This document shows positions 10,302 through 62,382 of a stretch of DNA of 64,000 nucleotides, piece by piece. Numbering within the stretch: position 1 is the stretch's first letter; each line of letters begins with the position of its first letter. The DNA lies in the sequence record ON286972. One strand, given 5' to 3'. A model generated the notes under the pieces. That model was not told where the DNA came from. It worked only from the letters and a program-made list of their open reading frames with translations, and made no database searches. A program made the translations under genes and the position numbers. This DNA is from Escherichia phage A4.

Positions 10302-10305
10302 TTAT

Positions 10306-11617: not shown

Positions 11618-11636
11618 ACAAAAGGACTTGACAAAA

Positions 11637-11945: not shown

Positions 11946-11957
11946 TAGAGGTATAAA

Positions 11958-18251: not shown

Positions 18252-19028
18252 ATGGCAAAAAACATGATTAGTAAATATGGCGTTCCATTACCATCGGGAA
18301 GAAATAAAACAATGCTACAACCTAAAGCTAAGTATAAATTTAGAGTTATTGTTTATAATTTCGGTACTGATATTGATGAGCGTGATCACATCGCATTAGA
18401 TGTTGATAAAGTTGATAGACCAACAGTAACATTCAGTACTCATAAGTTGAACCATTTTACTACCAATACTACATATATTGGTAATCATAACTGGGAACCC
18501 ATCACACTAACAATTCGTGATTCAATCGGTAATGAAAGTGCTAAAGCATTGTCTAGACAGTTACAAAAACAATTAGATTTTCAAAGACGTATTACCTCCA
18601 GAAGTGAACAAGACTATGGTTCGTATAAATTTGGTATGGTTATTCAAATGCTAAATGGACGTAACACAGATGATAGTATTGAAGATTTGGCAAGAAATAC
18701 GGCTGTTTCTGCTGCAACCGCAGTGACAAATAATGGTGGGTTAGTTAACGCAGTAGATCAATTCATCGGCGGCTCCAACTATAATAGTGCTGGTGTAATG
18801 GAATACTTTGTTCTTACAGGGTGTATCATCACCAATATTAGTTACGATTCATTGGAATATAGCTCCAGTGCACCAGTAACTATGGATATTACAATTAAGC
18901 CTGATAATTGTATTCAATTTGATAATATTGAAGAAATGTATAGTACTCGCATTAATTCATTACTACCAGAAAAAGTTAATCAGGGACTAGATATCATTGA
19001 CCGTGTATTCGGTAATATAGGTTTTTAA
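18252..19028 (+). CDS. tail tube paralog (gp19-family)
   Basis: N-terminus YGVPLPSGRNKTMLQPKAKYKFRVIVYNFG nearly identical in pattern to the preceding gene. Confidence 0.55.
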   Translation: MAKNMISKYGVPLPSGRNKTMLQPKAKYKFRVIVYNFGTDIDERDHIALDVDKVDRPTVTFSTHKLNHFTTNTTYIGNHNWEPITLTIRDSIGNESAKALSRQLQKQLDFQRRITSRSEQDYGSYKFGMVIQMLNGRNTDDSIEDLARNTAVSAATAVTNNGGLVNAVDQFIGGSNYNSAGVMEYFVLTGCIITNISYDSLEYSSSAPVTMDITIKPDNCIQFDNIEEMYSTRINSLLPEKVNQGLDIIDRVFGNIGF

Positions 19029-19038
19029 GGAGAGTACT

Positions 19039-21152
<2,114 letters not shown>

Positions 21153-31440: not shown

Positions 31441-31468
31441 AAGGGAGACAAATGTCTCCCTTTTTTTA
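31441..31468. terminator. bidirectional terminator between thyA and the convergent fiber gene
   Basis: AAGGGAGAC / GTCTCCCTT stem flanked by A-run and T-run. Confidence 0.65.
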
Positions 31469-33439
31469 TTTCACGGTTACTAATGTTCTTCCTGCAAAAC
31501 GAACATCAGGAGAAGAAGGAATACTATAAACTACACCAGTTAATGTAAACTTAACACTATCAACATCAACTTTAACAAATTCATCAGTTGTTACTTGTTC
31601 TTGAATTTCAGCATTAACTATATCAGTTTCTGGAACTGTCAGTCTGTAATATGCACCATCAAGTACCCAATTATCAACAGTGAATAATGTAGTTCTTACT
31701 GTACCAGAACCAATCGGAACCCATTTACCATCAACTTTCTGCATTGATGTTCTATTCTGTTCAGAGTACGCAATCATACCATCAACACCTTCACTGTCAT
31801 TAACAGTTGTTAGTACTGGCAATTGGATACCATAACGGTTAATACGTGTACGCAACACATTACTGTCATATACAGATAAATCCGCATAACCACGAACATC
31901 CATACGCAATTCACCGTTTAGTAGTTTCATATTAATATCGTTGGTAACGTGTGCAAATCTAAATGAATTACCACTGGTTAGCAGGATTCCATTAAAATTA
32001 TTATTAGCATTGTTAAAATTAGTTTCTTTATTAAACGTGGACACCGAGTTAACTGTTAATAAATTAGTTGAACTACCAGTTCCTAATATAGTATTACCTT
32101 TAACGTTCAAATTACCATTAGTTGTAACATTTGAAACCGCCGTAACATCACCCGTTAAAGTACTAATACCATCAACTTCTAAGTTTCCATGTAATTTGGT
32201 TACACCATTTTGCATTTCAACTTGTACTTTGTTCATAGAACTAAATGACAAAATATTATTTTCCCCACTAATACCAACATTTGTATTAGAATTATTAGCA
32301 AAACGTAATGTTGGTGCGGTTGCGGGTGCAGTGGTGCTTTGATATAAATTCAAAGAACCGTTTGTTACTCGCACACGTTCAACACCTGCTGTGGTTAAAC
32401 CAATAGCGGCATCTGCTGGGTGGAAAATACCAGTTTTTGTGTCAGTCCATTTACTTGGATCGTTTCCTGGGTTAGTATTTGGGTCATATGGAGCGTTATT
32501 AAAGCCTATAGCTGGCTCTGTAGCACTACCATAAGTTACCCCTAGTCTTCCTTTGCCTATCAGTCCATCATCAACCATAGAGTCACCAGTGCGGCGTAAG
32601 CCCTCTAATACGAGGTTATCTAAGGTAGTTTGAACTGTACCTGCGTTGGTACTGAATTGACGTTGACTACCAACCATGATAGTGTTATCATACAGTACTG
32701 AAGAAGCTGAAATACTAGCTCTTGACTGACGTAGGCGAATGTTTTTAGTTTCAGTGATGATAATCCAGTCACTATCAGCTAATGCAGTTTGGCCTTGTGG
32801 TGTTAAAGATGTATCAAACGGTGTAGTGATCGATTCATCTTGTGCCAAATTCACAAGACCTTCATGACCACTTGCTGGGATTGCAGTTGTTACAATACGA
32901 GCAAATGCATAACTTACCAATTTTTTAGTTGGTTCAATTGGGTTTTGATCTATATAATATAGAATTTCAATCCAATCACCTTGACCAGTTGGGTTCACTG
33001 GTGTGAATTTAACTGGATTTGTTGTAGGGGTATTTTGTGTATAGTGCTCTTGTGCGGCATCCATAATACCACGAACTACATAATAATCACCATTCAAAGA
33101 AACTGATGGTGCAGGTAATGCAGCATAGGATGCGGGTGGGTTTGTATCATCTTCAATAGCATCATATGTACCAAGGAATTGCAATCCACTTGTTACAGAA
33201 TCTGGTAATTGAGATGACAATAGTTTACCATTTGCATCTAGGTTTGCAAAACGTCTATACGCAACTGAACCATCTTCAAATTCGAGAACACCTTCGAATG
33301 CTTTCCATTCAGTGTTGTATCGAATCATACCTGTACGCATTTGGTCTGCTGTTACTATCGTTGGGGCTTTTGGTAGTTCAAGGAAAGCTTTGCTATCTAT
33401 GATAACACCACCATCACCACGAATTCTATTAATTGACAT
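31466..33439 (-). CDS. putative tail fiber / receptor-binding protein
   Basis: 657 aa, Thr/Asn/Gly-rich beta-rich composition, first gene of the minus-strand fiber locus. Confidence 0.5.
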   Translation of the reverse strand: MSINRIRGDGGVIIDSKAFLELPKAPTIVTADQMRTGMIRYNTEWKAFEGVLEFEDGSVAYRRFANLDANGKLLSSQLPDSVTSGLQFLGTYDAIEDDTNPPASYAALPAPSVSLNGDYYVVRGIMDAAQEHYTQNTPTTNPVKFTPVNPTGQGDWIEILYYIDQNPIEPTKKLVSYAFARIVTTAIPASGHEGLVNLAQDESITTPFDTSLTPQGQTALADSDWIIITETKNIRLRQSRASISASSVLYDNTIMVGSQRQFSTNAGTVQTTLDNLVLEGLRRTGDSMVDDGLIGKGRLGVTYGSATEPAIGFNNAPYDPNTNPGNDPSKWTDTKTGIFHPADAAIGLTTAGVERVRVTNGSLNLYQSTTAPATAPTLRFANNSNTNVGISGENNILSFSSMNKVQVEMQNGVTKLHGNLEVDGISTLTGDVTAVSNVTTNGNLNVKGNTILGTGSSTNLLTVNSVSTFNKETNFNNANNNFNGILLTSGNSFRFAHVTNDINMKLLNGELRMDVRGYADLSVYDSNVLRTRINRYGIQLPVLTTVNDSEGVDGMIAYSEQNRTSMQKVDGKWVPIGSGTVRTTLFTVDNWVLDGAYYRLTVPETDIVNAEIQEQVTTDEFVKVDVDSVKFTLTGVVYSIPSSPDVRFAGRTLVTVK

Positions 33440-33458
33440 TATTGACTATCCTCATACA

Positions 33459-33477
33459 ATTATATCAAGTATTTATT
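33459..33477 (-). promoter_or_regulatory. promoter-like region for the 657-aa fiber gene
   Basis: Minus strand AATAAATA followed by extended -10 TGaTATAAT about 20 bp upstream of ATG 33439. Confidence 0.35.
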
Positions 33478-33490
33478 TTAAGAAAAAGAA

Positions 33491-33512
33491 AAGGCCAACC
33501 ATAGTTGACCTT
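33491..33512 (-). terminator. rho-independent terminator (minus strand)
   Basis: Minus-strand AAGGTCAAC / GTTGGCCTT stem (one G-U) followed by a T-rich run. Confidence 0.5.
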
Positions 33513-33520
33513 AGTGTTTA

Positions 33521-34309
33521 TTAATTACGTACTGGGATCTTAGATTGATCTGGATATACAAAAGTTGCTGCTTTTTGTGCATCAAAAATAGTAGTTGCTG
33601 CATCAATTGCAGTTTGTTGTGCAGTTGCTGCATCAAAGTAACCGTCGATTTGTGCCAATAGACCATTGAAAATTTCAACCATCTCATCACCATCAACTGT
33701 TACAATCTCACCACTATCTAGATAGATATTAATAGTTTGGGAACCATTAATCGCTTGTGTATAATAGTTGTTTAACATCTGACGACCATTAACATCACTA
33801 GGGAATGTTACATCAACTGTTCCGTCAGCATTTTTATAATGATAACCACTATTAATTAAATTATCTCGTTCATATGCGGTTCTTTGCTTCAAATCAGCTT
33901 TAACATCAGCCAAATCCATATCAATGTAGGTTTGTGTTTTTACTGCTGTTAATGCTGCATATGGTGCTACTTCGGTTTCGTTAAATGTAACTACTGCATC
34001 ACCTTCAATTTTGCGATATTCAAGGTATTCACCCTTTGAATTTCTATCGCCAACAGATACATATTCTAACCACCAAAATCCTTCTTTCTTGCGAACTTCA
34101 TCAGCATTTTGTGGGATTACTGCATTTGGGGTTATTTTTATTCCATACAATGGTCTAATATCACTATATGTGTAATGATATTTACCATTAGGATCATTGG
34201 GTGGTTGTGGACTAAATGAAAGACCTTTTACATTTTTTGGATTTGAAATAATGCTTCCTAGTTTATAATCTGCTGTTGAACTACCACTTACATATGTAAA
34301 TTGAGCCAT
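33521..34309 (-). CDS. hypothetical virion protein
   Basis: 262-aa ORF between fiber genes, GAGGT RBS. Confidence 0.5.
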   Translation of the reverse strand: MAQFTYVSGSSTADYKLGSIISNPKNVKGLSFSPQPPNDPNGKYHYTYSDIRPLYGIKITPNAVIPQNADEVRKKEGFWWLEYVSVGDRNSKGEYLEYRKIEGDAVVTFNETEVAPYAALTAVKTQTYIDMDLADVKADLKQRTAYERDNLINSGYHYKNADGTVDVTFPSDVNGRQMLNNYYTQAINGSQTINIYLDSGEIVTVDGDEMVEIFNGLLAQIDGYFDAATAQQTAIDAATTIFDAQKAATFVYPDQSKIPVRN

Positions 34310-34346
34310 AATATTACCTCATTAAAAATTAAATTATTTACAAAGA

Positions 34347-34368
34347 GGTACAGGAAAAATCCTGTACC
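34347..34368 (-). terminator. hairpin after the large fiber gene
   Basis: GGTACAGG / CCTGTACC perfect 8-bp stem, 6-nt loop. Confidence 0.45.
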
Positions 34369-34380
34369 AATTATTTTATA

Positions 34381-37300
34381 TTAAGCAGTACGTTGAGCAA
34401 TAAACATATCTACTACTGGACTGTATCCATCATAAATCAACTGAACGATACTCACTCCACCTGGATTTGTGTTAATTTCACCACCAACGTTTGCATAAGT
34501 TCCGTCCCAATCAAAACTATGTCCACCAGTTGTATCTTGTGCGACATAGATATAATAAGAACCAGCTTTACCACTACCAATTAAACCAGTTATTGGTGTC
34601 ATCATTACGTTTTGATCTAGTGTTATATAATACACATTTGATAGACCATCTGGTGTCCAATTACCACCAACAGCAGCAGTACTTGCAGTAACTTTAGGTG
34701 ATGGAGTAACAGCATACTTTTTAGTAGTTACACTTTCAGTTACTAAATCAGCAATATCTGTATGTAGTGTACCTTCAATAGTTACATCTTTAGCAAATGT
34801 TGCATTTTCAGCAAATGAAGATGTACCAGTAACTGTGATTGCATCAGCAGACGCAGAACCTAGTGTTACAGCACCTTTAAGGTTAGTAGCACCAGTAATT
34901 GCTGCACCACCCGCAACTACATTGAAGCCACCCGCAGTGATTTCGATACCACCAGTACTAACAGTTAGTTTCTTACCGATAGTAACAACATCAGATAGTG
35001 TAGTTGCACCAGTAACTGCTAGAGTTGTGTTAATCTTAGCACTTGCCATAGTTGCTAGGCCAGAAGTTGTAATAGTTGCAGTAGTTACTGCACCAGACGC
35101 ACTAACGTTTGCACCAGACACATCACCAGTTGTGGTGATTGCACCATCACCAGCGTTGATAGTAGCACCATTAGTTGCAATACCACCTTTCAAAGTACTC
35201 AAACCTTCAGCAGTGATTGTTGAACCAACTGTTAGGGTTGTACCAGCAGCGATAAAGGTTGTAGAAGTTAGAGATTTAACTTCAACTGCACTTGCAGATT
35301 GGTCCAGTGTACCAATAATCTTACCACTAACAGTAAAGTCGCCAGTAGTTACTGCGTTACCATTAACAGTTAGGCTGTTAGCTGTTGAACCTTGTGCACC
35401 GAATGTTGCAGCACGTGCGTGCATATCTTCATCAGTAGTAATATCCTCAACTGCGTGAATTGTGGTATTAGAAGTTAATGAGTTCAGGGAAATATCCTGA
35501 CCAGCCAAATCTACTGAACCGTTAATATTACCAGCAACAAATAGGTTACTACCAATATAAGTATCACCAACAAATTGGATAGTTTCCGGTCTTGAACTAA
35601 CTTTAGGACCGATGATAATACCTTTCGCAGAAATATCAGCTTTAGGCATAGTCACAGTAGAAGCATCAGAGATGTTCACGGATGCACCATTAACAACCAA
35701 AGCACCACCAACAGTCAAACCAGTAGTTACCGCTGCACTACCAAATGTACCTTTACCAGTTGTGGTAATTGTAGTACCAGTAATGTCACCAGCAGCAGTG
35801 ATTGCGGTATTTGCACTAACAGCCAAACCACCAGTTAGAGTGCTTAGACCAGTAACTTCTAGTGTTTCTCTGGATTTCAAGCTTTTCGCATCAACTGGAG
35901 TAGTAGATAGATCCAATGTTCCAGGGTTTAGTGTTCCATTAATGGTAACATCACCAGAAACTGTTAGTGAACTGAGAGCAGCTTCACCAGCGGTTAGTTT
36001 TCCAGTTAGATTTGTAGTACCAGTAACAGCCAAAGCACCACCAGCACTTAGAGCACCAGTAACTTCCGCACTACTTAATGTAGCTTTACCACTTGTTGAA
36101 AGAGTAGTAGTGTTAGTACCACCATTTAGAGTTGAAACACCAGTAACAGTTAGTGTAGTACCAGCAGTTACAGAACCGAGTGCAGTTAAGTTAGCACTTG
36201 CATCAACACCTTCAACGTTTAGAACAGCAGAACCTAAGTTTAGGCTACCTTCAGGTGTAAATGCACCTTTAACAGTTAGGTCACCAGTAACAACTGCATC
36301 ACCTGAAACATCAACACTTGCTAGTGTTGCTTTACCAGAAGTTTGTAGAGTTGCGGATTGAACTTCACCAGTAGTTTTGATTAATGCAGAACCTGCATCA
36401 ACCCCACCAGATAGAGTACTTAGTCCAGTAACACCTAATGTTTCACCAATTGTCAAATAACCACCAACAGTTGCGTCATTATCAACTGCTACACCAACAC
36501 CAGTAGCACTTACTTGGATTGATTTAGAAGTAATTTTACCACCAACATCAACAGTACCATCAAAAGTTGCAGCACCTACAGTATGTAGGGTTGAACTTAG
36601 TGTAGTTGCACCAGAAATTGTTGGAGCACCAGTAATTGTACCAGTAGTTAGAATTAGGTCAGTACCAACAGTAGTACTTGTAGTACTTGCTAATGAGTTA
36701 GTTTCCAAATCAGCATTTGTGATAGTCAAGTTACCATCGATAGTAACGTCATTATCAACTTGTAGTGATTTAACAGTCAAATCAGTTGTACTAAAATCAA
36801 CGGAAGTTGCAGTGAAAGCACCTTCAACGTGCAAATCACCAGTAACATCTGTTGGTTTAGCTAGTGTTATTTTATCTCCAGCACTTGTGTATGAACCAGC
36901 ACTTACTGAACCATCAACCACTGCCGCAGCAGCAACTTTCAAGTTTCCAGAAGCAACAGTCAAGCCACCTTTAGCAGTAATACCACCGACGTTTACAGTT
37001 ACTGCGTTACCAAATGTTGAAGTACCAGTAACTTCAAGTGCACCAGAAACGGTCGCTTTACCACCGACTGTTGCATCACCAGTAACATTCAATTTACCAG
37101 CGGTTGCTTCAGTACTTGTTAGTTTTGGTAGAATACTTGGTTCAGTATTTTCAGTAACAGTAATAACACCAGAAGAAGTTAGTGATTTAACAGTTAGATC
37201 TGCCGCAGCAGCATTAATTGCACCATCAACAGTTAAGCTTCCACCAATGGTTGCACCTTCAGTTGTTGTTAATGATTTAGAACTGATATCAACTGGGCTT

Positions 37301-39918
37301 AAATCTAATCCACCTTCAGGTGTAAATGTACCTTTAACAGTTAAGTCACCATGTGCAACTGTATCATTTTCTAAATTAATACCATCGGTATTAACAATAG
37401 AAGGAGTAGTTACAGAAACAGCAGAAACAGCAGCCAATGTACTTTCACCAGTAACATTTAATGTAGAAATGTTTGCTGTAGTTACTGTTGCTGTACCAGT
37501 TGTACTGTTAGTTGTAGTAATATCAGTACTTTGTAATTTTGGTAGAATGTTAGTTCCAGTAGCATCATTACTAATCACAGGACCAGCACTAGTTAAAGAT
37601 TTAACACTTACATCTGCTGCACTTAAATCTACAGTACCATCAACAGTTAGGTTTCCACCTATATGTGCACTTTCAGATACATCAAGTGTTTTAACAGTTA
37701 CATCAGCCGCACTTAGGTCAATAACACCAGCCGTTAAAGTTCCAGTAACATTCAAATCACCACCAACTGATGCATTATGATCTACACTTAGACCAGTTCC
37801 GGTTCCGGTAATTTGTGCGGAAGCTGCGGTCACTTTAGTAGTTGCTGTGATATTTGGGGCAGAGATAGTACCGTCAGATTCAATTGAACCAGTTTCTAAT
37901 GCATCAGAACCAACACCAGTAACTTTACCAGTAACTTCAACTTTCAAGCCACTAAAGAGTGCGTTTCCACCAACACTTAGATTAGTTCCCACTGCAACTT
38001 CTTCAGTTGTGGTTACAGAATTAGGTAGAATGTCTAGACCATCAACGTTTGCTTTAATTGCAGCACCAGATAGTGTACCAGTAACGTTCAAATCTTTAAC
38101 AGTGGTTGTTTGACCAACAACTTCAAATAAACCATCAACTACCGTGTTACCAACCAATGTGGTAGTACCGTCAACTGTTAGGTTTCCAGATGCAGTTACG
38201 TCAACACCTTTAACATTACCAGATGCAGTTACATCTTTAGGAGTAATGTCTTGACCAGCTAGTGTAATACCAGTTGTAGTTCCAGTAACAGTCAAATCAG
38301 TTATAGTTGTGCCTTTTAGAACGGAATCCCCATCAACTGTTAGTGTACCAGAAGCATCTAGATTAACACCACTAATATTACCAGAAGCAGTTACATCTTT
38401 AGGTGTAATATCTTGACCAGAAATGTCAGGAACAAAACCAGTAACTGTACCAGTGAAATTAACGTCTTTGAATTGAGCCTTACCATCCACATCTAGAGTT
38501 AATGTATTTGGATCTTGTACCGCATTACCAGTTATTTTCAAATAATCAAATAGGTTCAAACCTTTTGCTGTAATACCGTAGGTAGATGCAGATACATCAC
38601 CAAATGTAGCAGTTTTCAGTACTGTTAGATTTGCTGGGGTCATTAATTCAGACTGTACTTCGTTTTGTAGAATTACAGTTGGGCGTAAACCAGGAGCAGT
38701 ATATGTAAAGTTAACTTTAGCATTCGTGTCTGCTACGTTTCCACCTAAAGTGACAGATTTTAAATTAGCATTCGCAGTTGAACCAACAATATTAGATTCT
38801 AGGTTTAATGCACCTTTTAGTGTAGTTAGTTTTTCAACAACTAAATTATCCGCAGTAATATCACTTAGTACAAAGTTACCTGATAGTGTTCCAGTAATAT
38901 CCAAATCACCAACAGTAGTTTTACCAGTAATATTAGTAGTTCCATCAACTTGTAGGTCAGTTAATTGTGTTTTACCTTTAGTTACACGTAGAATTGGTGT
39001 GGTTGGATCTTGTATTGAGTTACCAGAAAGTGTTAGGTAATCAAATAGGTTCAAACCTTTTGCGGTAATACCATTGGTTGCTGCTGATACATCACCAAAT
39101 GTAGCAGTTTTAAGTACTGTTAGATTTGCTGGAGTCATTAGCTCGGACTGTACTTCGTTTTGTAGAATTACAGTTGGGCGTAATCCTGGAGCAGTGTATG
39201 CAAAGCCTAGGCGTGCAGTCGAGTCCGCTGCATTAGAACCTAAAGATACAGCTTTTATGTTTGCTACAGTATTAGTACCAATGATGTTTGATTCTAGGGT
39301 TACAGCACCTTTTAATGTAGATAGTTTTTCAACAACTAAATTATCGGTATTAACATCCCCTAATGTGAAATCACCATCTAATTTACCAGTTACAGTTAGA
39401 TTCTCAACGGTTGCACCAGTTGCAGTAATATCAGTTGCTGATACAGTTGCAATGGTTGCTTCATTAGCAGTTAATTTATCAAAGCTTGCAGTGGTTGCTG
39501 CCGCAGCAGTGAGGTTACCATTTAATGTTGTTGTACCATTAACTTCTAATGCAGAAGTGGTGGTATCTTGAAAAATTGCTTTTCCTGATGTTTGTGTAAT
39601 ATCTTTGGCAAAAGTAGAAGTGCCATTAAAAGTAGCATTGGAATTAATAGTTGCTGTATCGGAACCAGCAGTAGTATTACCAATAACTGTATTGCCAAGT
39701 ACATCCATTCCACCCTTAAGTGACGCTTTGCCTGTAACATCGAGTGTTGTGTTGATTGTTGCTTGATCTACTGTAATTGCAGTGAAGGTAGCATCAGCGA
39801 AACTAACGGTCCCCTTAATGGTTACGTTTTTATCGAAGACCGCATTACCTTTAACTGATAATTCTTTACCAACATTAGTATTACCAGTTACTGCTAGATC
39901 TGTTTTTATCGAGTACAT
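34381..39918 (-). CDS. large repetitive tail fiber protein
   Basis: 1845 aa, extremely Thr/Gly/Val/Ala/Ser-rich with repeated motifs and an internal 165-aa tandem duplication. Confidence 0.65.
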   Translation of the reverse strand: MYSIKTDLAVTGNTNVGKELSVKGNAVFDKNVTIKGTVSFADATFTAITVDQATINTTLDVTGKASLKGGMDVLGNTVIGNTTAGSDTATINSNATFNGTSTFAKDITQTSGKAIFQDTTTSALEVNGTTTLNGNLTAAAATTASFDKLTANEATIATVSATDITATGATVENLTVTGKLDGDFTLGDVNTDNLVVEKLSTLKGAVTLESNIIGTNTVANIKAVSLGSNAADSTARLGFAYTAPGLRPTVILQNEVQSELMTPANLTVLKTATFGDVSAATNGITAKGLNLFDYLTLSGNSIQDPTTPILRVTKGKTQLTDLQVDGTTNITGKTTVGDLDITGTLSGNFVLSDITADNLVVEKLTTLKGALNLESNIVGSTANANLKSVTLGGNVADTNAKVNFTYTAPGLRPTVILQNEVQSELMTPANLTVLKTATFGDVSASTYGITAKGLNLFDYLKITGNAVQDPNTLTLDVDGKAQFKDVNFTGTVTGFVPDISGQDITPKDVTASGNISGVNLDASGTLTVDGDSVLKGTTITDLTVTGTTTGITLAGQDITPKDVTASGNVKGVDVTASGNLTVDGTTTLVGNTVVDGLFEVVGQTTTVKDLNVTGTLSGAAIKANVDGLDILPNSVTTTEEVAVGTNLSVGGNALFSGLKVEVTGKVTGVGSDALETGSIESDGTISAPNITATTKVTAASAQITGTGTGLSVDHNASVGGDLNVTGTLTAGVIDLSAADVTVKTLDVSESAHIGGNLTVDGTVDLSAADVSVKSLTSAGPVISNDATGTNILPKLQSTDITTTNSTTGTATVTTANISTLNVTGESTLAAVSAVSVTTPSIVNTDGINLENDTVAHGDLTVKGTFTPEGGLDLSPVDISSKSLTTTEGATIGGSLTVDGAINAAAADLTVKSLTSSGVITVTENTEPSILPKLTSTEATAGKLNVTGDATVGGKATVSGALEVTGTSTFGNAVTVNVGGITAKGGLTVASGNLKVAAAAVVDGSVSAGSYTSAGDKITLAKPTDVTGDLHVEGAFTATSVDFSTTDLTVKSLQVDNDVTIDGNLTITNADLETNSLASTTSTTVGTDLILTTGTITGAPTISGATTLSSTLHTVGAATFDGTVDVGGKITSKSIQVSATGVGVAVDNDATVGGYLTIGETLGVTGLSTLSGGVDAGSALIKTTGEVQSATLQTSGKATLASVDVSGDAVVTGDLTVKGAFTPEGSLNLGSAVLNVEGVDASANLTALGSVTAGTTLTVTGVSTLNGGTNTTTLSTSGKATLSSAEVTGALSAGGALAVTGTTNLTGKLTAGEAALSSLTVSGDVTINGTLNPGTLDLSTTPVDAKSLKSRETLEVTGLSTLTGGLAVSANTAITAAGDITGTTITTTGKGTFGSAAVTTGLTVGGALVVNGASVNISDASTVTMPKADISAKGIIIGPKVSSRPETIQFVGDTYIGSNLFVAGNINGSVDLAGQDISLNSLTSNTTIHAVEDITTDEDMHARAATFGAQGSTANSLTVNGNAVTTGDFTVSGKIIGTLDQSASAVEVKSLTSTTFIAAGTTLTVGSTITAEGLSTLKGGIATNGATINAGDGAITTTGDVSGANVSASGAVTTATITTSGLATMASAKINTTLAVTGATTLSDVVTIGKKLTVSTGGIEITAGGFNVVAGGAAITGATNLKGAVTLGSASADAITVTGTSSFAENATFAKDVTIEGTLHTDIADLVTESVTTKKYAVTPSPKVTASTAAVGGNWTPDGLSNVYYITLDQNVMMTPITGLIGSGKAGSYYIYVAQDTTGGHSFDWDGTYANVGGEINTNPGGVSIVQLIYDGYSPVVDMFIAQRTA
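38420..39405 (-). repeat. intragenic tandem duplication of about 495 bp (2 copies, diverged) within the large fiber gene
   Basis: The protein segment APGLRPTVILQNEVQSELMTPANLTVLKTATFGDVSA recurs 165 residues apart; matching DNA stretches seen around 38551 and 39046. Confidence 0.7.
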
Positions 39919-39974
39919 TCATTTCCCTCCATTTGGGTAAAATTAAAATACTTATTAACTGTGTTAATATGTAA

Positions 39975-39982
39975 TTATTTAT
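39975..39982 (-). promoter_or_regulatory. late-promoter-like motif for the large fiber gene
   Basis: ATAAATAA on the minus strand, between an upstream terminator and the GGAGGG RBS. Confidence 0.35.
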
Positions 39983-39992
39983 TTGTATATAT

Positions 39993-40025
39993 GAAAAAGC
40001 CAGGCACTAAGACATCATACCTGGC
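39993..40025 (-). terminator. hairpin terminator after the 300-aa fiber gene
   Basis: GCCAGG / CCTGGC stem with 15-nt loop, followed on the minus strand by TTTTT. Confidence 0.4.
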
Positions 40026-40032
40026 ATAAATC

Positions 40033-40935
40033 TTATTTCCCAGCGATAACAATCTTACCACTGAATTGTTCATCAGATACAAAAGTAACATTACCATCTG
40101 TATCAATTTGTGTATCCACGAATACCAAATCAAACGGTGCAGATGCTGTTGAACCAGGTACATCATTACCATAGATTGCCACGTACAAAGAATCAGGACT
40201 TTGTTTATGTGTATCAGCAGTGACAGTGTAAGTGAATTTATCAGCAGCAGCAATCCAGTCTGCTTTGTTAATCAATTTTCCGTATGGGGTAGTCATAGCG
40301 GTTGCTCCTATAATATTAACTTTAACCTCAGTAATACCATCTGGGAGGCCAAGCATTTTAATTGTAATATCCCCAAATCCAGACACTGTAATTTCGGAAT
40401 TAACCACACTACGAATATTTGGATTACCGTCTGTTGGTGTATCTTCCATTTGAACTAAAATGTCACGACCACGGTCATGTTGTGATTCAGGAATGGTATA
40501 TGTATATTCATCGACTGTTCCAGGAATAAGAACAAATGCTGCAACAGGGACAGAGAATGAAGTTACATAAGGACTATCGGTTACTGGACCACCACCATTA
40601 AATGGTTTCCAAATCCCAAGGTCTTTAATATATATTTGAACGATGTTGGTTGCATCAACCATAAAATAAACATCACCATCAGTTCCTAGTGTATCAGCAG
40701 GAGCGATATCACCACGCAAAATACCACTTGCACCACTACCACCATGAGCATTAAAATATGCTAAGGTTACTAGGTGTGTGTTTGCGGTTGGGTCACCAGC
40801 AGAAACCGGAAGAAGTCTTGTTCCAGAATAATCTTGGATTTGCACAATATCACCATTTGTTGTGAATTGTGCACCATTTTTACCTAGAATAAATTTCTTC
40901 TTCAAAGTTCCTTCTAAATTAGAAAAAACTGCCAT
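40033..40935 (-). CDS. tail fiber/spike protein sharing an N-terminal module with the next gene
   Basis: N-terminus MAVFSNLEGTLKKKFILGKNGA nearly identical to the 40953-43124 protein. Confidence 0.55.
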   Translation of the reverse strand: MAVFSNLEGTLKKKFILGKNGAQFTTNGDIVQIQDYSGTRLLPVSAGDPTANTHLVTLAYFNAHGGSGASGILRGDIAPADTLGTDGDVYFMVDATNIVQIYIKDLGIWKPFNGGGPVTDSPYVTSFSVPVAAFVLIPGTVDEYTYTIPESQHDRGRDILVQMEDTPTDGNPNIRSVVNSEITVSGFGDITIKMLGLPDGITEVKVNIIGATAMTTPYGKLINKADWIAAADKFTYTVTADTHKQSPDSLYVAIYGNDVPGSTASAPFDLVFVDTQIDTDGNVTFVSDEQFSGKIVIAGK

Positions 40936-40952
40936 TTTGAAATATCTCCTTA

Positions 40953-43124
40953 TTATGGAAGTGTAATGTATGTAATTGGGGATTCGGCTAACAATGGAGT
41001 CCCATCAGGGAAAGCAGTTTTTATTTCGTCTGCTATATCAATGCAAAATACCGAGTTGACCACGTATGTAGCTCGTGTTATATGAGTGTGGAGATCAGTC
41101 CCATTTTCACCAGCACCAGGAATTACAATTCTTGTACCTGCTGCTTTAGCATATTGGTTTGTACCCCATGCAGTGTTATGTGTTCGAATAGTTTTAGCAC
41201 CAACTACTGCTGCTTTAAGCTGTTCATATTTTCCTACGAATGCACCAGCTACTGTTACTACATATTTACCCCCAGATTGTTTGTGTAAAATTGTTCCTTT
41301 GGGGAAATATCTACCACCTGGGAATTCATCATAAGGTAGATAATATTGCTCCGTGACTGGTATCAGTACTGGGCCACGGTGACCAGTTCCATCTATTTCA
41401 GTTGTTACCGTGAAGTTATTACCAGATTGATCTATTCTATCAACATACATTCGTGAGAATGAATAATTTGATATATTAGCGTCATCTTGAACTATATTAC
41501 CAATCCAACTGGTATATGTATAATTAGTTCTGGTATAAACGCCACCACCTTCACCATCTTGATATTGACCAATTACATCTAAATTCTTTGTATAAATTTT
41601 ACTGAATTTTGATGATGATGGTAATCCACGCCAATATAATTTTTCACAAGTTATATTGTGCATATCAGTTTCGTTAGTCCATGCGTTTGCACCGGATGTG
41701 TATATTTCTATACTAGATTCAGGAATGAAAACGTTTTGAACTTTAAAATCTTTTGGTGGACCTGCATACCATGCATATTGGTGTGTTGCATCAGCAGGGT
41801 TAACACCCCATGTAAATTTAATCATTCTGTTTGTTGGTGCAGTTGCTGGATCATCCAAATAGCGACCAGTTAATCCGTCAACAACAAAATCTTGACATCC
41901 ATAAGTGATGATACCTGCGGCAGTTAAGCCAGTTCCAGTTGATATTGTGGTTGATGGAAATGTCTCATTATCTATTATATTAAAATTCTTACCGACTTCA
42001 ACGTGTATACATTGACGACAGTTATATACTCTATTTCGAGCAATAGTGAAGTTTTTAACATATTGACTATCTGGAATATCAACTCCATATGGACCTTTAC
42101 CAGCAACACCGATACCGATACCCCAGTTTGATAGTGGGATTGGAGCGTTAGTACCATCAACGTTTTCAATATGGTTTCCTTCAATGATTAGACCATCAGT
42201 GAAGTGTCTTGAAACTACGTTTAATTCAATACCATCACCATAGATATCGTGAATATGGTTATATGCATAGCGAGCATATTTTACTATCTCACCACTACCA
42301 CCTTGCTGTAGAACACCAAAGTTAACATCGTACATTTCATTGAAACAAAAGTCGAGAATACCTTCTGAAGTTAAATCACGCATAAAGAATGCACAGGTGA
42401 ATGTTGTACCATAAAAGCGGTTGAAATAGAACTTACCATTACCACCAGAAAACTGAATATAACTACGAGCAATGTTTGCCCCTTGTATTTTACAGTTGGT
42501 TGCTGATATCATTGTTTTACCAGTGCCAGTTAATGTGCCACCATACCATTCAATATTTTCAAAATATATTGCTTTGGATAAACGATAAACACCTTTACCT
42601 TGTATTTGGATATCATGAGCTTTAGCGTAATCAGCACAAGCTTGAACTGCGTCAGTATCATCAGCAATACCATCACCGATAGCACCAAATTCTTCAGGTG
42701 TTATATAATACAAAGCTTGTTGTAGTGTTCCACCAGAAACCAAACCAATATAATCAGAACCATTAGTACTGGATAATACTTTAGTATTAACATACATTGA
42801 TTTTATCCATGCACCATTCTTCTTAGCGAAAATATCTAGGATACCACCACTTTCTTGGTCTAATTGCAAATAAGTATAATTATTCTTACCAAGACTATTA
42901 TCTGGGATTTCATTCCCAAATAATACGGTTGGGTGGTCAGCGAGATACTTTGCAGTAATCGCTGAATTATCATTAATCGGTTCACCAACTTGTACGGGCA
43001 ATAAGATGCTTCCGAAACTATCTGTAATAGACAGGGAATTGTTAGCATAATTAATTAATGCCCCATTTTTACCAAGTATAAACTTGGTTTTCATTGTCCC
43101 TTCAAAGTTAGAAAAAACTGCCAT
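40953..43124 (-). CDS. tailspike with pectate-lyase-like right-handed beta-helix (putative polysaccharide depolymerase)
   Basis: Shared N-terminal module; EEFGAIGDGIADDTDAVQACADYA is the hallmark start of Pectate_lyase_3-type beta-helix tailspikes. Confidence 0.75.
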   Translation of the reverse strand: MAVFSNFEGTMKTKFILGKNGALINYANNSLSITDSFGSILLPVQVGEPINDNSAITAKYLADHPTVLFGNEIPDNSLGKNNYTYLQLDQESGGILDIFAKKNGAWIKSMYVNTKVLSSTNGSDYIGLVSGGTLQQALYYITPEEFGAIGDGIADDTDAVQACADYAKAHDIQIQGKGVYRLSKAIYFENIEWYGGTLTGTGKTMISATNCKIQGANIARSYIQFSGGNGKFYFNRFYGTTFTCAFFMRDLTSEGILDFCFNEMYDVNFGVLQQGGSGEIVKYARYAYNHIHDIYGDGIELNVVSRHFTDGLIIEGNHIENVDGTNAPIPLSNWGIGIGVAGKGPYGVDIPDSQYVKNFTIARNRVYNCRQCIHVEVGKNFNIIDNETFPSTTISTGTGLTAAGIITYGCQDFVVDGLTGRYLDDPATAPTNRMIKFTWGVNPADATHQYAWYAGPPKDFKVQNVFIPESSIEIYTSGANAWTNETDMHNITCEKLYWRGLPSSSKFSKIYTKNLDVIGQYQDGEGGGVYTRTNYTYTSWIGNIVQDDANISNYSFSRMYVDRIDQSGNNFTVTTEIDGTGHRGPVLIPVTEQYYLPYDEFPGGRYFPKGTILHKQSGGKYVVTVAGAFVGKYEQLKAAVVGAKTIRTHNTAWGTNQYAKAAGTRIVIPGAGENGTDLHTHITRATYVVNSVFCIDIADEIKTAFPDGTPLLAESPITYITLP

Positions 43125-43137
43125 TAATCAATCCCCC

Positions 43138-44265
43138 TTAGATGTTGTTTTCAATTGGTTGGATTGGTGCTTGCCATGCTAGAGTACAAATTACTTTCAT
43201 TTGACCATAATTACTGTTATTAACTGATTCATTAAAAACACAAGCAATGATTTCATCTTCTGCTGACGGTTCATGGTTTGTTTCATTAACGATAAAGCGT
43301 AGTGCACGGTTGATATCAAAATAATCAACTGGTGCAATAATAGTACCACCGATATCTTCTTGTGCTTCCCCACCTACACGAATGTGCATTTCAGTTACAG
43401 GGTCAATATAAGCTTGGGTGATATCAACTTCAATATTAGTTACTACATAACCTGCTGGGCATGTACCGATTACCAATACTGCGTTGGTCCATGAATGATC
43501 AATCGTGTTTACAACGATAATTGAATCTTTACCATTCTGACCCGGATCACCTTGCTTACCTTCTGGACCAGGTTCACCATCTTTACCACGGAACTCAATA
43601 CCTTCACTCCATTCTTTTGTTGGAGGGGTGGTTTGATTATTAATATCTACGTAATATAGTTTTCCATCAGTCGTGTTATAGAAGCAATAATCTTCTGGTA
43701 AGTTATCAATACTTGGGAAAGCAGGACCGTCACTGTCAATATGGAAACGACCACGTGGACCTTGTTCACCACGGAAATCAATACCATTACTCCATGAACC
43801 AGCTTTTTGATTATAAAAATACACTTTACCATCGGAAGTATTATAGAAAGTATATTGGTCAAATAGACCAGTGGTTGGGAAAACAGGACCAGAAGAATCA
43901 ATTTTAAATGATTTACCTGGTGCACCAGTATCACCTTTACCAAATTCTACTGTGTTCCAAGTACTTGGTTCTACACCAGCATCATTTGTTTTAAAATATA
44001 GTTTTGCAGTTCCATTTGCTAGACTTAAATAACACCAACCTTCTGGTTTATCAACTGCAAATGTACCGTCTGGTATTTCCATACCAACATCATCAGGATA
44101 GAAATTTTTACCATTAGTACCGTCATGTCCAACGACTAGACCCAAATCTTGTATTGTATTATCAGCGAATGTTACAATCAAATGTCCAGCAGAGTTAATT
44201 ACTAAACTCTTAATACCAGAATTGTTACATGAACCGCCAGACCCATTGTTGAATGAAATTGTCAT
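43138..44265 (-). CDS. collagen-like repeat tail fiber protein
   Basis: G-x-x triplet runs (GKDGEPGPEGKQGDPGQNGKD, GEQGPRG) and internal repeats around YFYN and YYVD. Confidence 0.6.
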   Translation of the reverse strand: MTISFNNGSGGSCNNSGIKSLVINSAGHLIVTFADNTIQDLGLVVGHDGTNGKNFYPDDVGMEIPDGTFAVDKPEGWCYLSLANGTAKLYFKTNDAGVEPSTWNTVEFGKGDTGAPGKSFKIDSSGPVFPTTGLFDQYTFYNTSDGKVYFYNQKAGSWSNGIDFRGEQGPRGRFHIDSDGPAFPSIDNLPEDYCFYNTTDGKLYYVDINNQTTPPTKEWSEGIEFRGKDGEPGPEGKQGDPGQNGKDSIIVVNTIDHSWTNAVLVIGTCPAGYVVTNIEVDITQAYIDPVTEMHIRVGGEAQEDIGGTIIAPVDYFDINRALRFIVNETNHEPSAEDEIIACVFNESVNNSNYGQMKVICTLAWQAPIQPIENNI

Positions 44266-52369: not shown

Positions 52370-55300
52370 TTATTGAATATTCAATAGATTTTCTATATCA
52401 GTTCCAGTAATTGACAATCCATTTCTGAATGTATCTAATGGAATTGGTGGATAGAAGTTTTGATATTGAGTAAACTTATCAATGCTCCCCAAGTTCAATC
52501 CATTAAAGCTATAAGACGTTCCTTTAGTAAAATTATGTTCCGCACTATACATGACACCACGTAATAGACGGTCAGTGTTTCTTACCTGAACCTTCTCATA
52601 TCCAACCACAATAATATCATCATTCTGTGCCGCAGCACCTGACAGTACTGAATCAGTAATGATATATGGGCTTATTGAACGAGGTTTAGCAACATAAGTG
52701 ATTGCCTCATCTTCAACGGTTGTAATGTTAATTACACCACATCCTACTTCTTTGATGAACGTGTTATTGACCACAGGTTGTGCATACTGCCACACGCGAT
52801 CATAACTTAGTACTGGTTGAATAACATCAACATCGTATTCAAATACAGTGATTTCAATACCATCAGTCATTTTAGCTCGTACTAGTTCACCCAGGACACC
52901 TTTACCAGAGATTGGCTGATTGTAACCATTATCAATTGTAATACCATCAACTTCAAAAATCTCATTGGAAACTAACCACAAATCAATTTCATCAGGTGTG
53001 ATACCATCATTGAATTTACCACCATATAATGTTTCGTCATAGAATACTTCATAGTTCAATGCATGTATACTGTAATGACGATTATTTTCATATAGTTTAA
53101 GTCCATTGTCATCAAACTCAGGGTCTTGGAAAGTGCGGATTCTAACTAAGTTCATTGATAATGTATAAAAACGCTCATTACTTTCACGCTTAGTTATACT
53201 ATCAAACATTAACACTACACCATTACTATCAACCAACTCTACGTTACCATTACCCAATACACGTACTGTGTATAGTTTTGGTTTTTTAGAGGATTGGATT
53301 TTACTAGCACTTAATATAGTTACCCAGTTACCGTCTTGGAATCGTACATAATCTTCACCATCTGGCGTGAAAATCATAACCTTATCACCATCTTTCAAAC
53401 CTTCATCGTGAACCTTGATTTCAGTAATTGTTTTAATTTCTGAAATTGGGAAGAAGTATTTTTCAGATTCTTTGAACACATCTTTACCCATATTCTCAAT
53501 GACAATATCATATGATGGAATACTTACAACTGCTTCTGACATATTGTAAGGGTTTTGTACGATCATACCCTCAATCTGGAATCTACTTGTGTCTTTTAAT
53601 TGCTCTTGAGCAACTTCATCGAAACCGTAACCATCAACAGTGAAACGTAATTGTGCCATTGTTCTTCCTGATGGGTTTAGTTCAGAAATGTCGATGATAT
53701 AAGGATCAATCTCACTATCTTTAACTTCCCATTTAATGGATTTGGTTTGTGATTCCAATGCCAAGTTATCGAATGCATTCATATCATTGAAATATTTTGC
53801 AGTATTGATACTTTCCAGTACTTCAACATATGCAGAATACATTGGATTATTCTGGTCTTGTGGTAAATCATTTAAATCAATTTCAGCCAATACAACTGAT
53901 TCTCCGGTTGTTATGAATAAGTCTTCCATGAAATCAGATATGCTGTAACTTTCAGGAATCGGTAGATATTCACCTGCCGCATTCACAACATACACATATT
54001 TCCTTGGCATCATAACAAAAGCATACTTATCAACTGCACGATTACTTAAGATTTCTCTAGCAACATAATAATGATCTAGAATATTCTTATTAAATGTTTG
54101 TCGCATTGCAGATAACACATGAACGGTATCAGAATAATAACGGTCATTTAATGTGGTATCATACTTGTAGCAATAAACACCATATTCTATCTCTAGTATA
54201 TTACGAACTTGGTCTTCATTAGTAAACTCAGGGTGATTTTTCTTGATCATATCGACATATTTTTCATATAATTCAATACTAATCTCAAAATAACCATAGT
54301 TGTAATCACTACTTGCACTGAACCCAAAAGGTAGGCGAGTATTAGGATTATCATTATAGTTCGTACCCTTAAATGGACAACCAATCTCATTAGAAACCAT
54401 GTCATCAGATATATTCTTAAACATTTTCACACGAGTTGCTAATGTATTGTATTGAATATATTTCTTAACGTCTTCTAAAATGTTACTGTTGTTTGTATCA
54501 GCAGTTACCTGCTCCAAATCAGCAGTAAATTGGTCAGTCATTGCAATATCAGTTGAATGGGCTTTATACCATGCATCAATTCCTTTAATGACACCATTAC
54601 TAATATCCAAATCTGAATATTTGGTAGTCATTTCAATACCAATCTGTGAAATTAAGGTATTATTATCATATTCAGGGAATGTATAAACATATCTCTGTAA
54701 TTCATAATCATTTCCTATATCCGAAGCATTAGATTGATACTTACTATTGGTTGATTTCAACTCATCAATTGTATAATTACTATCATACGGGTCACATTGA
54801 ATATTATCATAATGCATAATAACGTCGATTTCTTGGAATCGTCTGTTAGGTGTGATAAAGTCACTTGGTAGTGAACCAATCTTTTCCCAACGTTGGGTTA
54901 CGTCATTAAATTGTGCATATTCTAAATCCCAAATGTCTTTTTCAGTCTTAACCCACACACCATCAACTAAAATATAGCCATCTGGGTCAAGGTCATTACT
55001 GATACCATTAATCAAATCATCATCAGAAGTTTTCTGTTCTATTTGAGAACGGATTTTGGTTCTGTATGGTTTAACTTCTTCGAAGTACTCAACAATTTGA
55101 TTAATCAAGTTGTCATTTGAGTAGTTTTGTACGAGAGATTGTTCTAAACCTACAATATAGATATATGAGGTTTTGAATACCCAGTCAACAACACTTTGTT
55201 CAGTGTGTACGTACTTAACCATATCAAAAACAATATTACTTTGATATAAGTTGAATGAATTTTTCAACAACGCTAACGCATTACGAACGTTAACCTCATG

Positions 55301-58300
55301 AGAATTCAAAGAACCATCATCATTGTAAACATTGTACCCAGAATATAACATTGAATTCAATTCAACTGTACTATTCTCACGTCCAATAGCTTTCCAGTAT
55401 ATATTATTACGAGATGCAGTCTTGATGTATAATGTCCAAACACCATCACTATCAGTTACACGGATAATATCACCAATTTGGTAATTTTTAGTGTTTGCGT
55501 CATCTAAACTAACTTCTTGTGTATATTCAGTGTTGCTATCGTATCCAGTATCGTACCAATCAGCCAGATTCCAGTACTGGGTCATATCCAAAGATGTACC
55601 AAGTGATTCTATGAAGTCAGCTTGTTTAATCATCTTGTGTTGACCTTCACCTCTATTTTCTAGAGTGATTGTAACAGTACTACCAACTGCACTTGGACTG
55701 TTCATCAATTGAATGTATCCATTTGGATCAATGTGAACAAAATATACTGAACTAGAAGATAATGGTGCTGGTAGAGTTCCGATGGAACTTACAAATACTG
55801 CATCATTCTCTTTAAAGCGGTTATCTTCTGGTGCAATTACCAATTCATTGTTAAATGATAGAACACGGAATGTAATATCATTTGGGTTCATTTTTAATGT
55901 TTTCACATTAAACACATCATTCATAACAACACTGTTAGTTGTGATGTTCTGTGAACGGTAAAAGTTATTTGCACTCTCAACAAACGCACGACGAGCTTCA
56001 ATGACATTCTGGAACCAAGTTTTATTAGAACCTAAACCAGTTTCAACTTTAGGATAAATTATTTCATTTACAACACCAGTTGAAGTAGTTTCTTGACCAA
56101 TTAGTGAGTTCCATAGTGAATTCCAAATATCTGGGTTAAAGTCATAACTATCACCTTCTTTACAGAGTTGATATTGATCATGCTTCAGTACTTCGATATT
56201 GTCATTTCTATATGAAATTGTCAAAATGCTTGTATCATCATTAACTTCAAATTGCATATTACTTAGAATGAAACTATTTTCATTAATAGGTGCAAACCAA
56301 GGAACATTCAATTGTGTTGGATCTTGAATAATACGTGCAATATCAGTACAAGACTTACTACGAGTAGTCATTGGTGGAACATAAATGGTATTACGAACCC
56401 AGAAATAATAACGAACTACATATGTATCAGTGATTGGATCATATTCCATAGATGAACTGTAGTTCTCATCCATTGCAATCCCACTTGGGAGATACATAGT
56501 ATTGTTTTTATTTTTATTGGCTTGTTCTGCACAATATTTTTCCCAGTTGTATGGTTCTACTGGTGAACTAACCCATTCTAGAACATCAATAACACTGTGT
56601 GGTAATAATTTACCCCAATTATAACGCTTATATTCATTAGTTGCTTTTACATCAACGTTACCATCCTCATCAAAGATTGGACGGGTATAATCCAGATAGA
56701 ATGCAGTGCTAGTGTTCCACCACACTTTACCTACCTTTTCAGCACCCCATGCTTGTAATAGTTCACCGTTACTGCTATACTGTGCTGGGTCCACTGGAGA
56801 GATGAAATCAACATCTTGCATTGCAACCCCAGGAATAACACCGTTAATTGGGTCAAACACATTCAAATACAATGCAGTAATGTTTGTTCTTTCATCATAC
56901 GTAGTAGGACGGTCAAACAAAGTGCTTTCAGGTGCACTGTAACTATATTTTTTAGCAATATATTCATCGCGTTCTTGTTGAGTACTAAATCTACTAACAT
57001 AACGATACAAACGTGGTGCTGATTCTACTGTTGAAAAGTCAATAGTAATGGAAGTGTCAAATGGCACTACCATAACTTTTGGATCTAGTCCAGAAGTGTA
57101 GTATTGGCATTCATCACGTAGGGCATCAGGCATAAAGTTTGTTTCATCAACAAAATAATAATAATCACCATCATTGAGTGGGATATCATCAGACAATAGT
57201 ACTTTACAATATTGCTCAGCATATGGATCTTCACTTTCAATTGGTGTAATAGAAACCATTGTAATACCAGTATCTACTAAATCATACACATTCCATTCGT
57301 TATTGATATCTTGGAACATCCAAACAGATGTTGGGATTTTACCAGAATTATTCATATAACTAATGCGGTCTTGATTTGCAGTTTCGTAATTTAATGTGGT
57401 ATAATCAATTTCATCTAGGGTTACTGGTCCAATATTAGGTAATTGGATATTCTCACTTCTCCCATTACGCATAGGGAATGAGAATTTACCTTTTGGACGA
57501 CTAATCCAGCGTGAATCTTCACCAATTTCACCATAATATACAATTTCATTCTCAGATTCAACCTTATCGGAATAACGGTCAAATGTAATCATTTGTGGTT
57601 GTTGTTTAAACTCATTATTAATTAGTTTAAATTGAAGATTTTTAACACCATCAATGTTACCATAAGAACCAACACGGAATGCCCATTCTTGTAATGCTTT
57701 ATACTCATCAGTATTATATGATTTAGATACACGTAATACTTTTTCTAGTACTTGGTTAGTGCCTTTATCATGAATAAAACCTTTATAGAAATCAATTCGA
57801 CCAGGCTCATTAGTGATCATACGTTGTAAGTAATCACGAGACTGATAGCCAATTAAGTGGTTTGAAAGTTCATTTAATTGAACATCACTAACTGGGGTTT
57901 CATTATCATAATACTGTTGGAAATTAGACACCAAAGTTTCAAATGATGGTAATGTACCAGCTTCTAGGATGATAAATCCAGGAGCTTGTAAACGTCCAGA
58001 CCATGAACCAGTGATATATCCATACAATTTAATCAATTCTTGAACTGCACCATAGGTTGGTTCATAGATATAATCACCGAAAATCGTCTGATCATCAAAA
58101 ATAACAGCATGTTCATAAGAACTGATACTTAAACGAATAAGTGCTATGCGTTTATTTGATTCTTCAGTAGTTCTTACCGTGAATATGTTACCAATACGAG
58201 ATGTTTCAATCTCAAATTGACGTATACCTTGGTTTGAATCATCTAATAATGACCAAACACCACCACTATTTTGTGCAATTGACTGAACTGAACCAAAATC

Positions 58301-62347: not shown

Positions 62348-62382
62348 GTATAGGACTCCATAAATTCGTTCATTCATTTGAT

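Follow-up and report, generated by a model that had tools for sequence, protein, structure and literature searches.

A stretch of 64,000 nucleotides (nt) from Escherichia phage A4 (sequence record ON286972), referred to below as the window, carries a tail-fibre/receptor-binding gene cluster, late-expressed, of a Rak2-like jumbo E. coli myophage related to Asteriusvirus. The open reading frame (ORF) listing confirmed six consecutive minus-strand genes at 31466-44265, with the coordinates that a preliminary description of this sequence had given. They encode, in order, a conserved "tail protein" of 375 amino acids (aa) (43138..44265), a predicted colanidase tailspike of 723 aa that combines an N-terminal module (N-module) with a Phi92 gp150-type body (40953..43124), a 300-aa virion protein with the N-module (40033..40935), a giant tail fibre of 1845 aa (34381..39918), a DUF4376 virion protein of 262 aa (33521..34309; PF14301, phrog_17968), and a conserved structural protein of 657 aa (31466..33439; phrog_14293, E 7e-278). 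The gaps between the six genes are 13-114 nt long, and a purine-rich Shine-Dalgarno-like stretch precedes each of them. All six products had been described as fiber-like. The term suits the 1845-, 657- and 375-aa proteins and is less apt for the 300-aa protein, which consists of the N-module and two beta-sandwich domains, and for the 262-aa DUF4376 protein. The locus is of a known kind, already annotated in relatives, and its enzyme is a member of a family that has been characterised. The newer detail, a modest one, is that the first ~105 residues of the colanidase were taken from the module of the neighbouring small virion protein.

The cluster is placed between the thymidylate synthase gene (thyA) and tail-completion/virion-structural genes; the flanking genes encode a T4 gp15-like tail-completion protein and virion structural proteins. 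The flanks were ~78-83% identical at the nt level to Asteriusvirus coliphages (121Q, PBECO4, phAPEC6), and the cluster itself matched them only in patches, at ~73%. RaK2, GAP32, CBB and Munch were more distant from the window than Asteriusvirus. The closest relative was an unannotated 357,761-bp contig (AATHYQ020000001.1, L015) from the E. coli assembly GCA_012813795.2, which was 96-97% identical to the window at the nt level. Identity to 121Q, determined by tblastn, was 72% for the 375-aa protein, 62% for the colanidase, 64% for the 300-aa protein, 44% for the fibre and 45% for the DUF4376 protein. Since protein identity to 121Q was only 44-72% and the flanks were ~80% identical at the nt level, phage A4 is a distinct species or genus-level relative, outside the described species.

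The same six genes were found in the same order and orientation in UE-S1 (518-523) and, over the stretch compared, in 121Q (gp574-569), and the order of PBECO4 gp546-548 was also that of the window. As in phage A4, the N-module is carried by both the colanidase and a ~298-aa protein in the Asteriusvirus cluster (121Q, PBECO4, phAPEC6 gp253-258, UE-S1). The cluster of GAP32, CBB and Munch consists of five genes and lacks the colanidase. In XaC1, the genes follow this order as far as the fibre genes, at which the stretch compared ends, and a second giant fibre gene is present. The cassette thus reads 375-aa tail protein, ~290-aa N-module protein, giant fibre, DUF4376 protein and ~650-aa protein, and it lies in this order beside thyA and the gp15-like gene in UE-S1, 121Q, GAP32, CBB and Munch, and in part in XaC1. 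Five of the six genes therefore form a cassette conserved in four other Rak2-like genomes (GAP32, CBB, Munch, and XaC1 over the part compared), and the sixth, the colanidase gene, was added in the Asteriusvirus lineage, phage A4 included. In RaK2, the locus is reduced to genes for a tail protein of 371 aa, a protein of 115 aa consisting of the N-module alone, and a protein of 510 aa, followed by thyA.

The virion proteome of CBB, determined by mass spectrometry, includes all five orthologues, CBB_224-228 (PMC5259590). From this cluster, the phAPEC6 virion mass-spectrometry list contains only gp253 (41 kDa) and gp256 (180 kDa) (PMC7247149). With orthologues of five of the six proteins in CBB virions and two in phAPEC6, the original assignment of the locus to tail fibres and receptor binding was upheld.

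The colanidase and the shared N-terminal module

The preliminary description had taken the 723-aa protein for a depolymerase of the pectate-lyase type, directed at capsule or lipopolysaccharide. In this study, we found that its residues 104-722 (40959..42815, minus strand) align end to end with residues 17-623 of Phi92 gp150, for which a crystal structure is available (PDB 6E0V; E 6e-216, phmmer), so that the homology covers the whole catalytic body of a Phi92 gp150/PBECO4 gp547-type colanidase. The protein also matched phrog_6117, "colanic acid degradation" (E 6e-229), and its residues 263-418 resemble WcaM of the host colanic-acid cluster. PBECO4 gp547, which we take to be the enzyme of Kim et al. 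2015 (cited in PMC10059673), reportedly degrades colanic acid, and the purified enzyme is said to act in trans. According to PMC13450770, Phi92 gp150 hydrolyses colanic acid at the beta-1,4 bond between glucose and fucose, and 6E0V has been named as the colanidase tailspike (PMC11126041). By its homology to Phi92 gp150 and its similarity to WcaM, the 723-aa protein is predicted to hydrolyse colanic acid; judged from sequence, it is a colanidase, that is, a glycoside hydrolase and not a lyase.

The motif EEFGAIGDGIADDTDAVQ was present in the 723-aa protein. None of the Pfam pectate-lyase models, including PF12708, matched it even at E<=10, and only the short FGAxGDGxxDDT cap motif is common to the protein and the pectate-lyase family. 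This cap motif also matched a CBA120 tailspike protein (TSP; 4OJ5) and a GH55 glucanase (5M5Z). Together with the homology to 6E0V, these matches point to a right-handed parallel beta-helix fold. The earlier assignment thus holds in that one polysaccharide depolymerase is encoded, but the 6E0V homology and the lack of a Pfam pectate-lyase match make it a predicted colanidase and not an enzyme of the pectate-lyase or capsule-K type.

We found the colanidase catalytic body in 254 phage records; these span many lineages, NST1, Justusliebigvirus and podophages among them. In other phages, relatives of the 723-aa protein bear tailspike or tail-fibre annotations. Its positional orthologues, 121Q gp573 and PBECO4 gp547, were 62-63% identical to it, and Phi92-type proteins were 52-54% identical (52% for that of phage alia). 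A recent swap of the colanidase body was considered and rejected, as its nearest relatives are the Asteriusvirus orthologues (63%) and not the Phi92-type proteins (52-54%).

The first residues of the 723-aa and 300-aa proteins had been noted to be nearly the same over about 20 positions. In the BLASTP alignment, which pairs residues 1-106 of the larger protein with residues 1-109 of the smaller one, 39% of the positions were identical (E ~1e-17). The common N-terminus is therefore real, and the shared element is a module of ~105 residues rather than 20. It occupies residues 1 to ~105 of the colanidase (42810..43124) and residues 1-112 of the 300-aa protein (40600-40935), both on the minus strand, and no third copy was found in the window by tblastn or with a hidden Markov model (HMM) of the module. 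The first 21 residues are near-invariant across paralogues and genera (MAVFSNLEGTMKKxFILGKNGA), and ten invariant residues lie among them. In the Phi92-type colanidase of phage alia, the module is absent; the alignment begins at residue 86, and an unrelated N-terminus of ~190 aa stands in its place.

Among 50,697 phage records, the module was present in 71, all apparently Rak2-like jumbo phages, with two places per genome in Asteriusvirus-type records and one in other genera. With the corresponding modules of the colanidases of 121Q and Turkey5, the A4 colanidase module shared 58-59% identity. As colanidase-type modules were 58-68% identical among themselves and 32-41% identical to the 300-aa type, they form a group of their own, which points to one old duplication and fusion. 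The module is found on virion proteins: CBB_227 was detected by mass spectrometry (PMC5259590), and RaK2 ORF061w is annotated as a virion structural protein. A generic secretion tag, an explanation that the preliminary description had allowed for, was rejected because the shared N-terminus has no hydrophobic core and heads proven virion proteins. In GAP32, a colanidase-like gene lies far from the cluster (NC_019401.1 70657-72369; 29% identity). Only one N-module is detectable in GAP32, on a protein of 287 aa, so that the GAP32 enzyme, if it is attached at all, apparently relies on something else for this.

An exhaustive HMM profile search with the module was performed against 1.84 billion proteins. 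A word-index search with the module profile returned nine short proteins and missed known members, and it was not used for counts. In the profile search the module split in two: positions 1 to ~70 head other proteins, and positions ~65-112 form a separate, widespread unit of ~45 residues, repeated in tandem 4-15 times in many long proteins, some with collagen repeats. By eye, this second half looked similar to the beta units in the 375-aa protein; the HMM did not detect the likeness, and it is not claimed. The first ~65 residues also head a 780-aa protein with a beta-helix and Peptidase_S74, a 705-aa Beta_helix protein, and proteins of 1204-1366 aa, of which the one scanned (P0176) contains a BNR propeller. 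Two of the module-headed beta-helix proteins, one of which carries the Peptidase_S74 chaperone, are encoded on a single uncultured 120-kb contig (L010, Logan SRR18476386_53; 10001-12343 and 18571-20688), which is otherwise unrelated to the window. Precomputed annotation assigns PF27114, "Phage_tail_beta", to both, and this newer Pfam entry may already cover the first ~65 residues of the module. When the uncultured module variants were searched against isolates, matches were found in Rak2-like phages only.

These comparisons indicate that the shared N-terminus behaves like a portable module. We tentatively suggest, as an idea that may well prove wrong, that its first ~65 residues (MAxFSNxxGT...GK.G..., with a P....DA.T..Y.D-type motif at their end) are a portable "plug" with which Rak2-like jumbo phages and uncultured relatives mount diverse bodies on one conserved baseplate socket. 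The bodies on such a plug would be colanidases, beta-helix depolymerases with an S74 chaperone, BNR-propeller fibres, connectors with immunoglobulin (Ig)-like domains, or none.

The colanidase gene has undergone a natural deletion in the nearest relatives. Comparison of the window with L015 by blastn showed that the segment 41300..43092 (minus strand), corresponding to colanidase codons 11-611, is missing from L015. The deletion is in-frame and leaves a remnant ORF of 122 aa (L015 9615-9983), and its junction lies at an imperfect 10-nt repeat, AAGG[G/A]ACAAT. An identical deletion was found in a contig from SRR2034070 (L016, 9615-9983). These results suggest that, in that setting at least, the phage can do without the enzyme.

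The giant fibre, the DUF4376 protein and the other appendages

The 1845-aa protein matched phrog_4549, "tail fiber", in eight stretches. It contains 18% Thr and is self-similar throughout, with degenerate repeats of the beta-helix type. Its orthologues 121Q gp571, GAP32_220 and Munch_252 are annotated as long tail fibres, and the orthologues CBB_226 (PMC5259590) and phAPEC6 gp256 (PMC7247149) were detected in virions. Chunked BLASTP revealed a tandem duplication of ~165 aa, in which residues 162-347 correspond to residues 328-517 with up to 77% identity (38368..39435, minus strand). This duplication suggests a recent length change by unequal recombination. Turkey5 and XaC1 each have two giant fibre genes in tandem (L001 1-9837; L008 9888-18333), which indicates that the slot grows by duplication.

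The last ~170 residues of the fibre are homologous to the phiTE gp241-type C-terminal domain. Residues 1668-1842 (34393..34917, minus strand) matched residues 630-792 of 9CUY chain g, a "putative tail fiber protein" of phage phiTE (E 1.8e-26, phmmer), and precomputed annotation places PF26209, Phage_phiTE_241_C, on the 95%-identical L015 fibre. We take 9CUY chain g to be the long tail fibre of phiTE, which is described as a trimeric extended beta-helix of 512 Å (PMC11972413). The A4 fibre differs from it in being more than twice as long (1845 versus 793 aa) and in having no recognisable N-terminal helical bundle.

Scaled from phiTE (512 Å for a PDB chain of 793 aa), giant fibres of 1553-1845 aa would be ~100-120 nm long. 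This is close to the 119 nm of the CBB hairs, and hairs of ~120 nm are seen on both CBB and phAPEC6 (PMC5259590, PMC7247149). Speculatively, and as a weaker possibility, the 1845-aa fibre might be these hairs. The giant fibre gene is absent from RaK2, for which hairs have not been described.

The DUF4376 assignment of the 262-aa protein was obtained at 31.9 bits against a cut-off of 25 bits, over residues 136-241. Its CBB orthologue, CBB_225, was found in virions with 16 peptides and 68.5% coverage (PMC5259590). The fibre and the DUF4376 protein, which is 88.6% identical to its L015 counterpart, are the most divergent products of the cluster. Differences from L015 were concentrated in the last 145 residues of the fibre (29 of 87) and in the first 100 residues of the DUF4376 protein (21 of 30). 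Together they define a hypervariable spot at ~34010-34830, which spans the 3' end of the fibre gene and the 5' part of the DUF4376 gene, with neighbouring genes 98.5-99.7% identical to L015. Since the fibre tip and the DUF4376 protein diverge fastest, they are likely the host-range determinant. The main text of a receptor-screen preprint contained no result for the Asteriusvirus phage G17.

Structure prediction was run on the 300-aa and 375-aa proteins. Two beta-sandwich domains occupy residues 124-298 of the 300-aa protein (40042-40566, minus strand). This protein is conserved over its whole length in all genera at 41-83% identity, and BLASTP gave 100% identity to its L015 counterpart, a second comparison 99.7%. 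The preliminary description had seen in it and the colanidase interchangeable receptor-binding proteins on a common anchor. Because the 300-aa protein is conserved along its full length, a connector seems a better description of it than an interchangeable receptor-binding protein, and the proposal was not supported. The module is on only two of the six proteins. In RaK2, the giant fibre and the DUF4376 gene are missing together with both C-terminal domains of the 300-aa protein, and this joint loss supports a link between the 300-aa protein and the giant fibre.

The 375-aa protein was predicted to consist of an N-terminal beta unit, three small beta units with G-X-Y linkers between them, and a C-terminal jelly-roll head (residues 248-364). 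Its G-X-Y runs lie at residues 46-54, 111-119 and 166-174 (three triplets each) and at 227-247 (seven triplets; 43525..43587, minus strand), as located with regular expressions. In shuffled sequences, 0 of 20,000 reached seven triplets, and the glycines of the runs were invariant in 46 homologues. The Pfam Collagen model (PF01391) scored 16.1 bits on this protein against a cut-off of 27.2 bits. The "collagen-like fiber" described earlier therefore stands as far as non-random, conserved G-X-Y runs are concerned; these are only short linkers, below the Pfam threshold.

The 657-aa protein has a conserved N-terminal domain of ~375 aa, central repeats of variable length that resemble those of the giant fibre, and a conserved, beta-sandwich-like C-terminal end. 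In the alignment of UE-S1, GAP32, CBB, Munch and RaK2 ORF060w, the repeats were lacking in RaK2 and expanded in UE-S1. Its orthologue CBB_224 was represented by 22 peptides in virions (PMC5259590). Sequence and profile searches found no solved relatives of the 300-, 375-, 657- and 262-aa proteins in the PDB.

Proposed organisation of the cluster and alternatives

We propose a model in which the six genes encode a set of tail fibres and appendages with distinct roles. The N-module, above all its first 21 residues, would be a docking element through which the colanidase and the 300-aa protein attach to one type of site at the baseplate periphery. The colanidase arose by fusion of a Phi92 gp150-type body behind a diverged copy of the N-module of the 300-aa protein. 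As a trimer, it would hydrolyse the colanic-acid slime layer and thereby allow the virion to reach the outer membrane of mucoid cells, as an accessory and dispensable receptor-binding protein. The 300-aa protein would serve as the connector, with its two Ig-like domains holding the giant fibre. The phiTE-type fibre tip and the DUF4376 protein would recognise the primary receptor and set the host range, the DUF4376 protein acting as the tip partner of the giant fibre, either as an adhesin or as a retained chaperone. The 657-aa protein, a short fibre, and the 375-aa protein would be further short trimeric appendages of the baseplate. We consider this model as a whole to be probable; docking, the incorporation of the colanidase into the virion and the identity of the receptor are the steps in it that we infer.

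Several points weigh against parts of this model. The colanidase orthologue gp254 is not in the phAPEC6 virion mass-spectrometry list, and neither are gp255, gp257 and gp258 (PMC7247149). The PHROGs category of the colanidase family is "moron/auxiliary", and the virion location of the A4 enzyme is argued from its module and its homologues. The 300-aa protein could be a decoration, or could itself bind a receptor. L015 and L016 may stem from one isolate, in which case the colanidase deletion could have happened only once or could have arisen in the laboratory.

Some of these points would fit an explanation that we regard as unlikely, in which the module is a folding or trimerisation element copied by gene neighbourhood and the colanidase is a soluble enzyme, freed at lysis, that clears the slime for the progeny. 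The second half of the module, as a tandem-repeat unit that sometimes stands beside collagen repeats, fits a trimerising role, but the first 21 residues are conserved across paralogues and genera far beyond the need of a folding nucleus. Likewise, the purified PBECO4 enzyme reportedly acts in trans, and the colanidase can be deleted, as in L015 and L016; against this, the same module is carried by virion proteins, namely CBB_227 and, by annotation, RaK2 ORF061w. The missing gp254 and the PHROGs category would also agree with a soluble enzyme, but the homologue Phi92 gp150 was deposited and described as a tailspike (PMC11126041), and other phages have relatives that carry tailspike or tail-fibre annotations. 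In addition, the Phi92-type colanidases carry their different ~190-aa N-terminus in the place of the module, which is the usual sign of lineage-specific attachment domains. We therefore retain the docked tailspike as the preferred interpretation of the colanidase.

It is very unlikely that the six proteins form a hyperbranched multi-depolymerase complex of the RaK2/K64-1/CBA120 type, in which interchangeable receptor-binding proteins share an anchor and make the host range broad or specific for capsule types, as the preliminary description had favoured: although the phage belongs to the Rak2-like group, two of the proteins, one a depolymerase, have a common N-terminal module, and the uncultured contig encodes two different beta-helix proteins with the same N-terminal domain, only one of the six proteins is an enzyme and two of the six carry the module, the syntenic RaK2 locus is reduced and not expanded, the predicted target, colanic acid, is a common enterobacterial exopolysaccharide and no K-type capsule, the branched fibres of RaK2 are gp526-534, encoded elsewhere in its genome and built with CBA120-like D1/D2/XD domains (PMC10253068), and by electron microscopy CBB and phAPEC6 are described with six short baseplate fibres and hairs rather than branched fibres (PMC5259590, PMC7247149).

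Comparison with known systems and other features of the window

The colanidase body of phage A4 is homologous end to end to those of Phi92 gp150 and PBECO4 gp547. Phi92-type proteins have their unrelated ~190-aa N-terminus, whereas the A4 enzyme has the Rak2-specific module of ~105 aa. The same principle, a conserved N-terminal domain with exchangeable C-terminal bodies, is known from RaK2/K64-1 (Alcyoneusvirus) and CBA120, which belong to the same phage supergroup (PMC10253068). The A4 locus differs from these systems in its place and domains and has one enzyme instead of seven; no similarity to the XD/D1-D2 assembly domains of CBA120 TSP1-4 and RaK2 gp526-534 was detected in the A4 cluster. 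As in the pairs T4 gp37-gp38, Mu S-U and P2 H-G, phage A4 has a long trimeric fibre, predicted to be beta-helical, and its tip co-diverges with the gene just downstream. In contrast to those pairs, the candidate partner in A4 is a DUF4376 protein, the CBB orthologue of which stays in the virion.

E. coli commonly becomes resistant to phages by overproducing colanic acid, a barrier that phages with a colanidase overcome. The intact colanidase of phage A4, compared with the deletion in its nearest relative, may be useful to know when phages are chosen for therapy. The module boundary at about residue 105 offers a concrete handle for host-range engineering in a poorly understood phage group, and the hypervariable spot of the fibre tip and the DUF4376 protein offers a second one. 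If the portable plug is real, it would be a simple handle for retargeting jumbo phages. The locus is otherwise ordinary for its family.

A promoter scan of the window gave fewer hits than expected from shuffled sequences and was uninformative. The total number of terminator-like sites did not exceed the shuffle expectation; two terminator-like hairpins, at 34347-34368 and 33491-33512, lie directly 3' of the giant fibre gene and the DUF4376 gene. The UE-S1 annotation places terminators in the matching gaps, but on the opposite strand. A 3335-aa ORF at 52370-62377 (minus strand), among the largest genes of the window, is a positional match to 121Q gp582, "virion structural protein", and is probably the counterpart of the 382-kDa phAPEC6 gp245.

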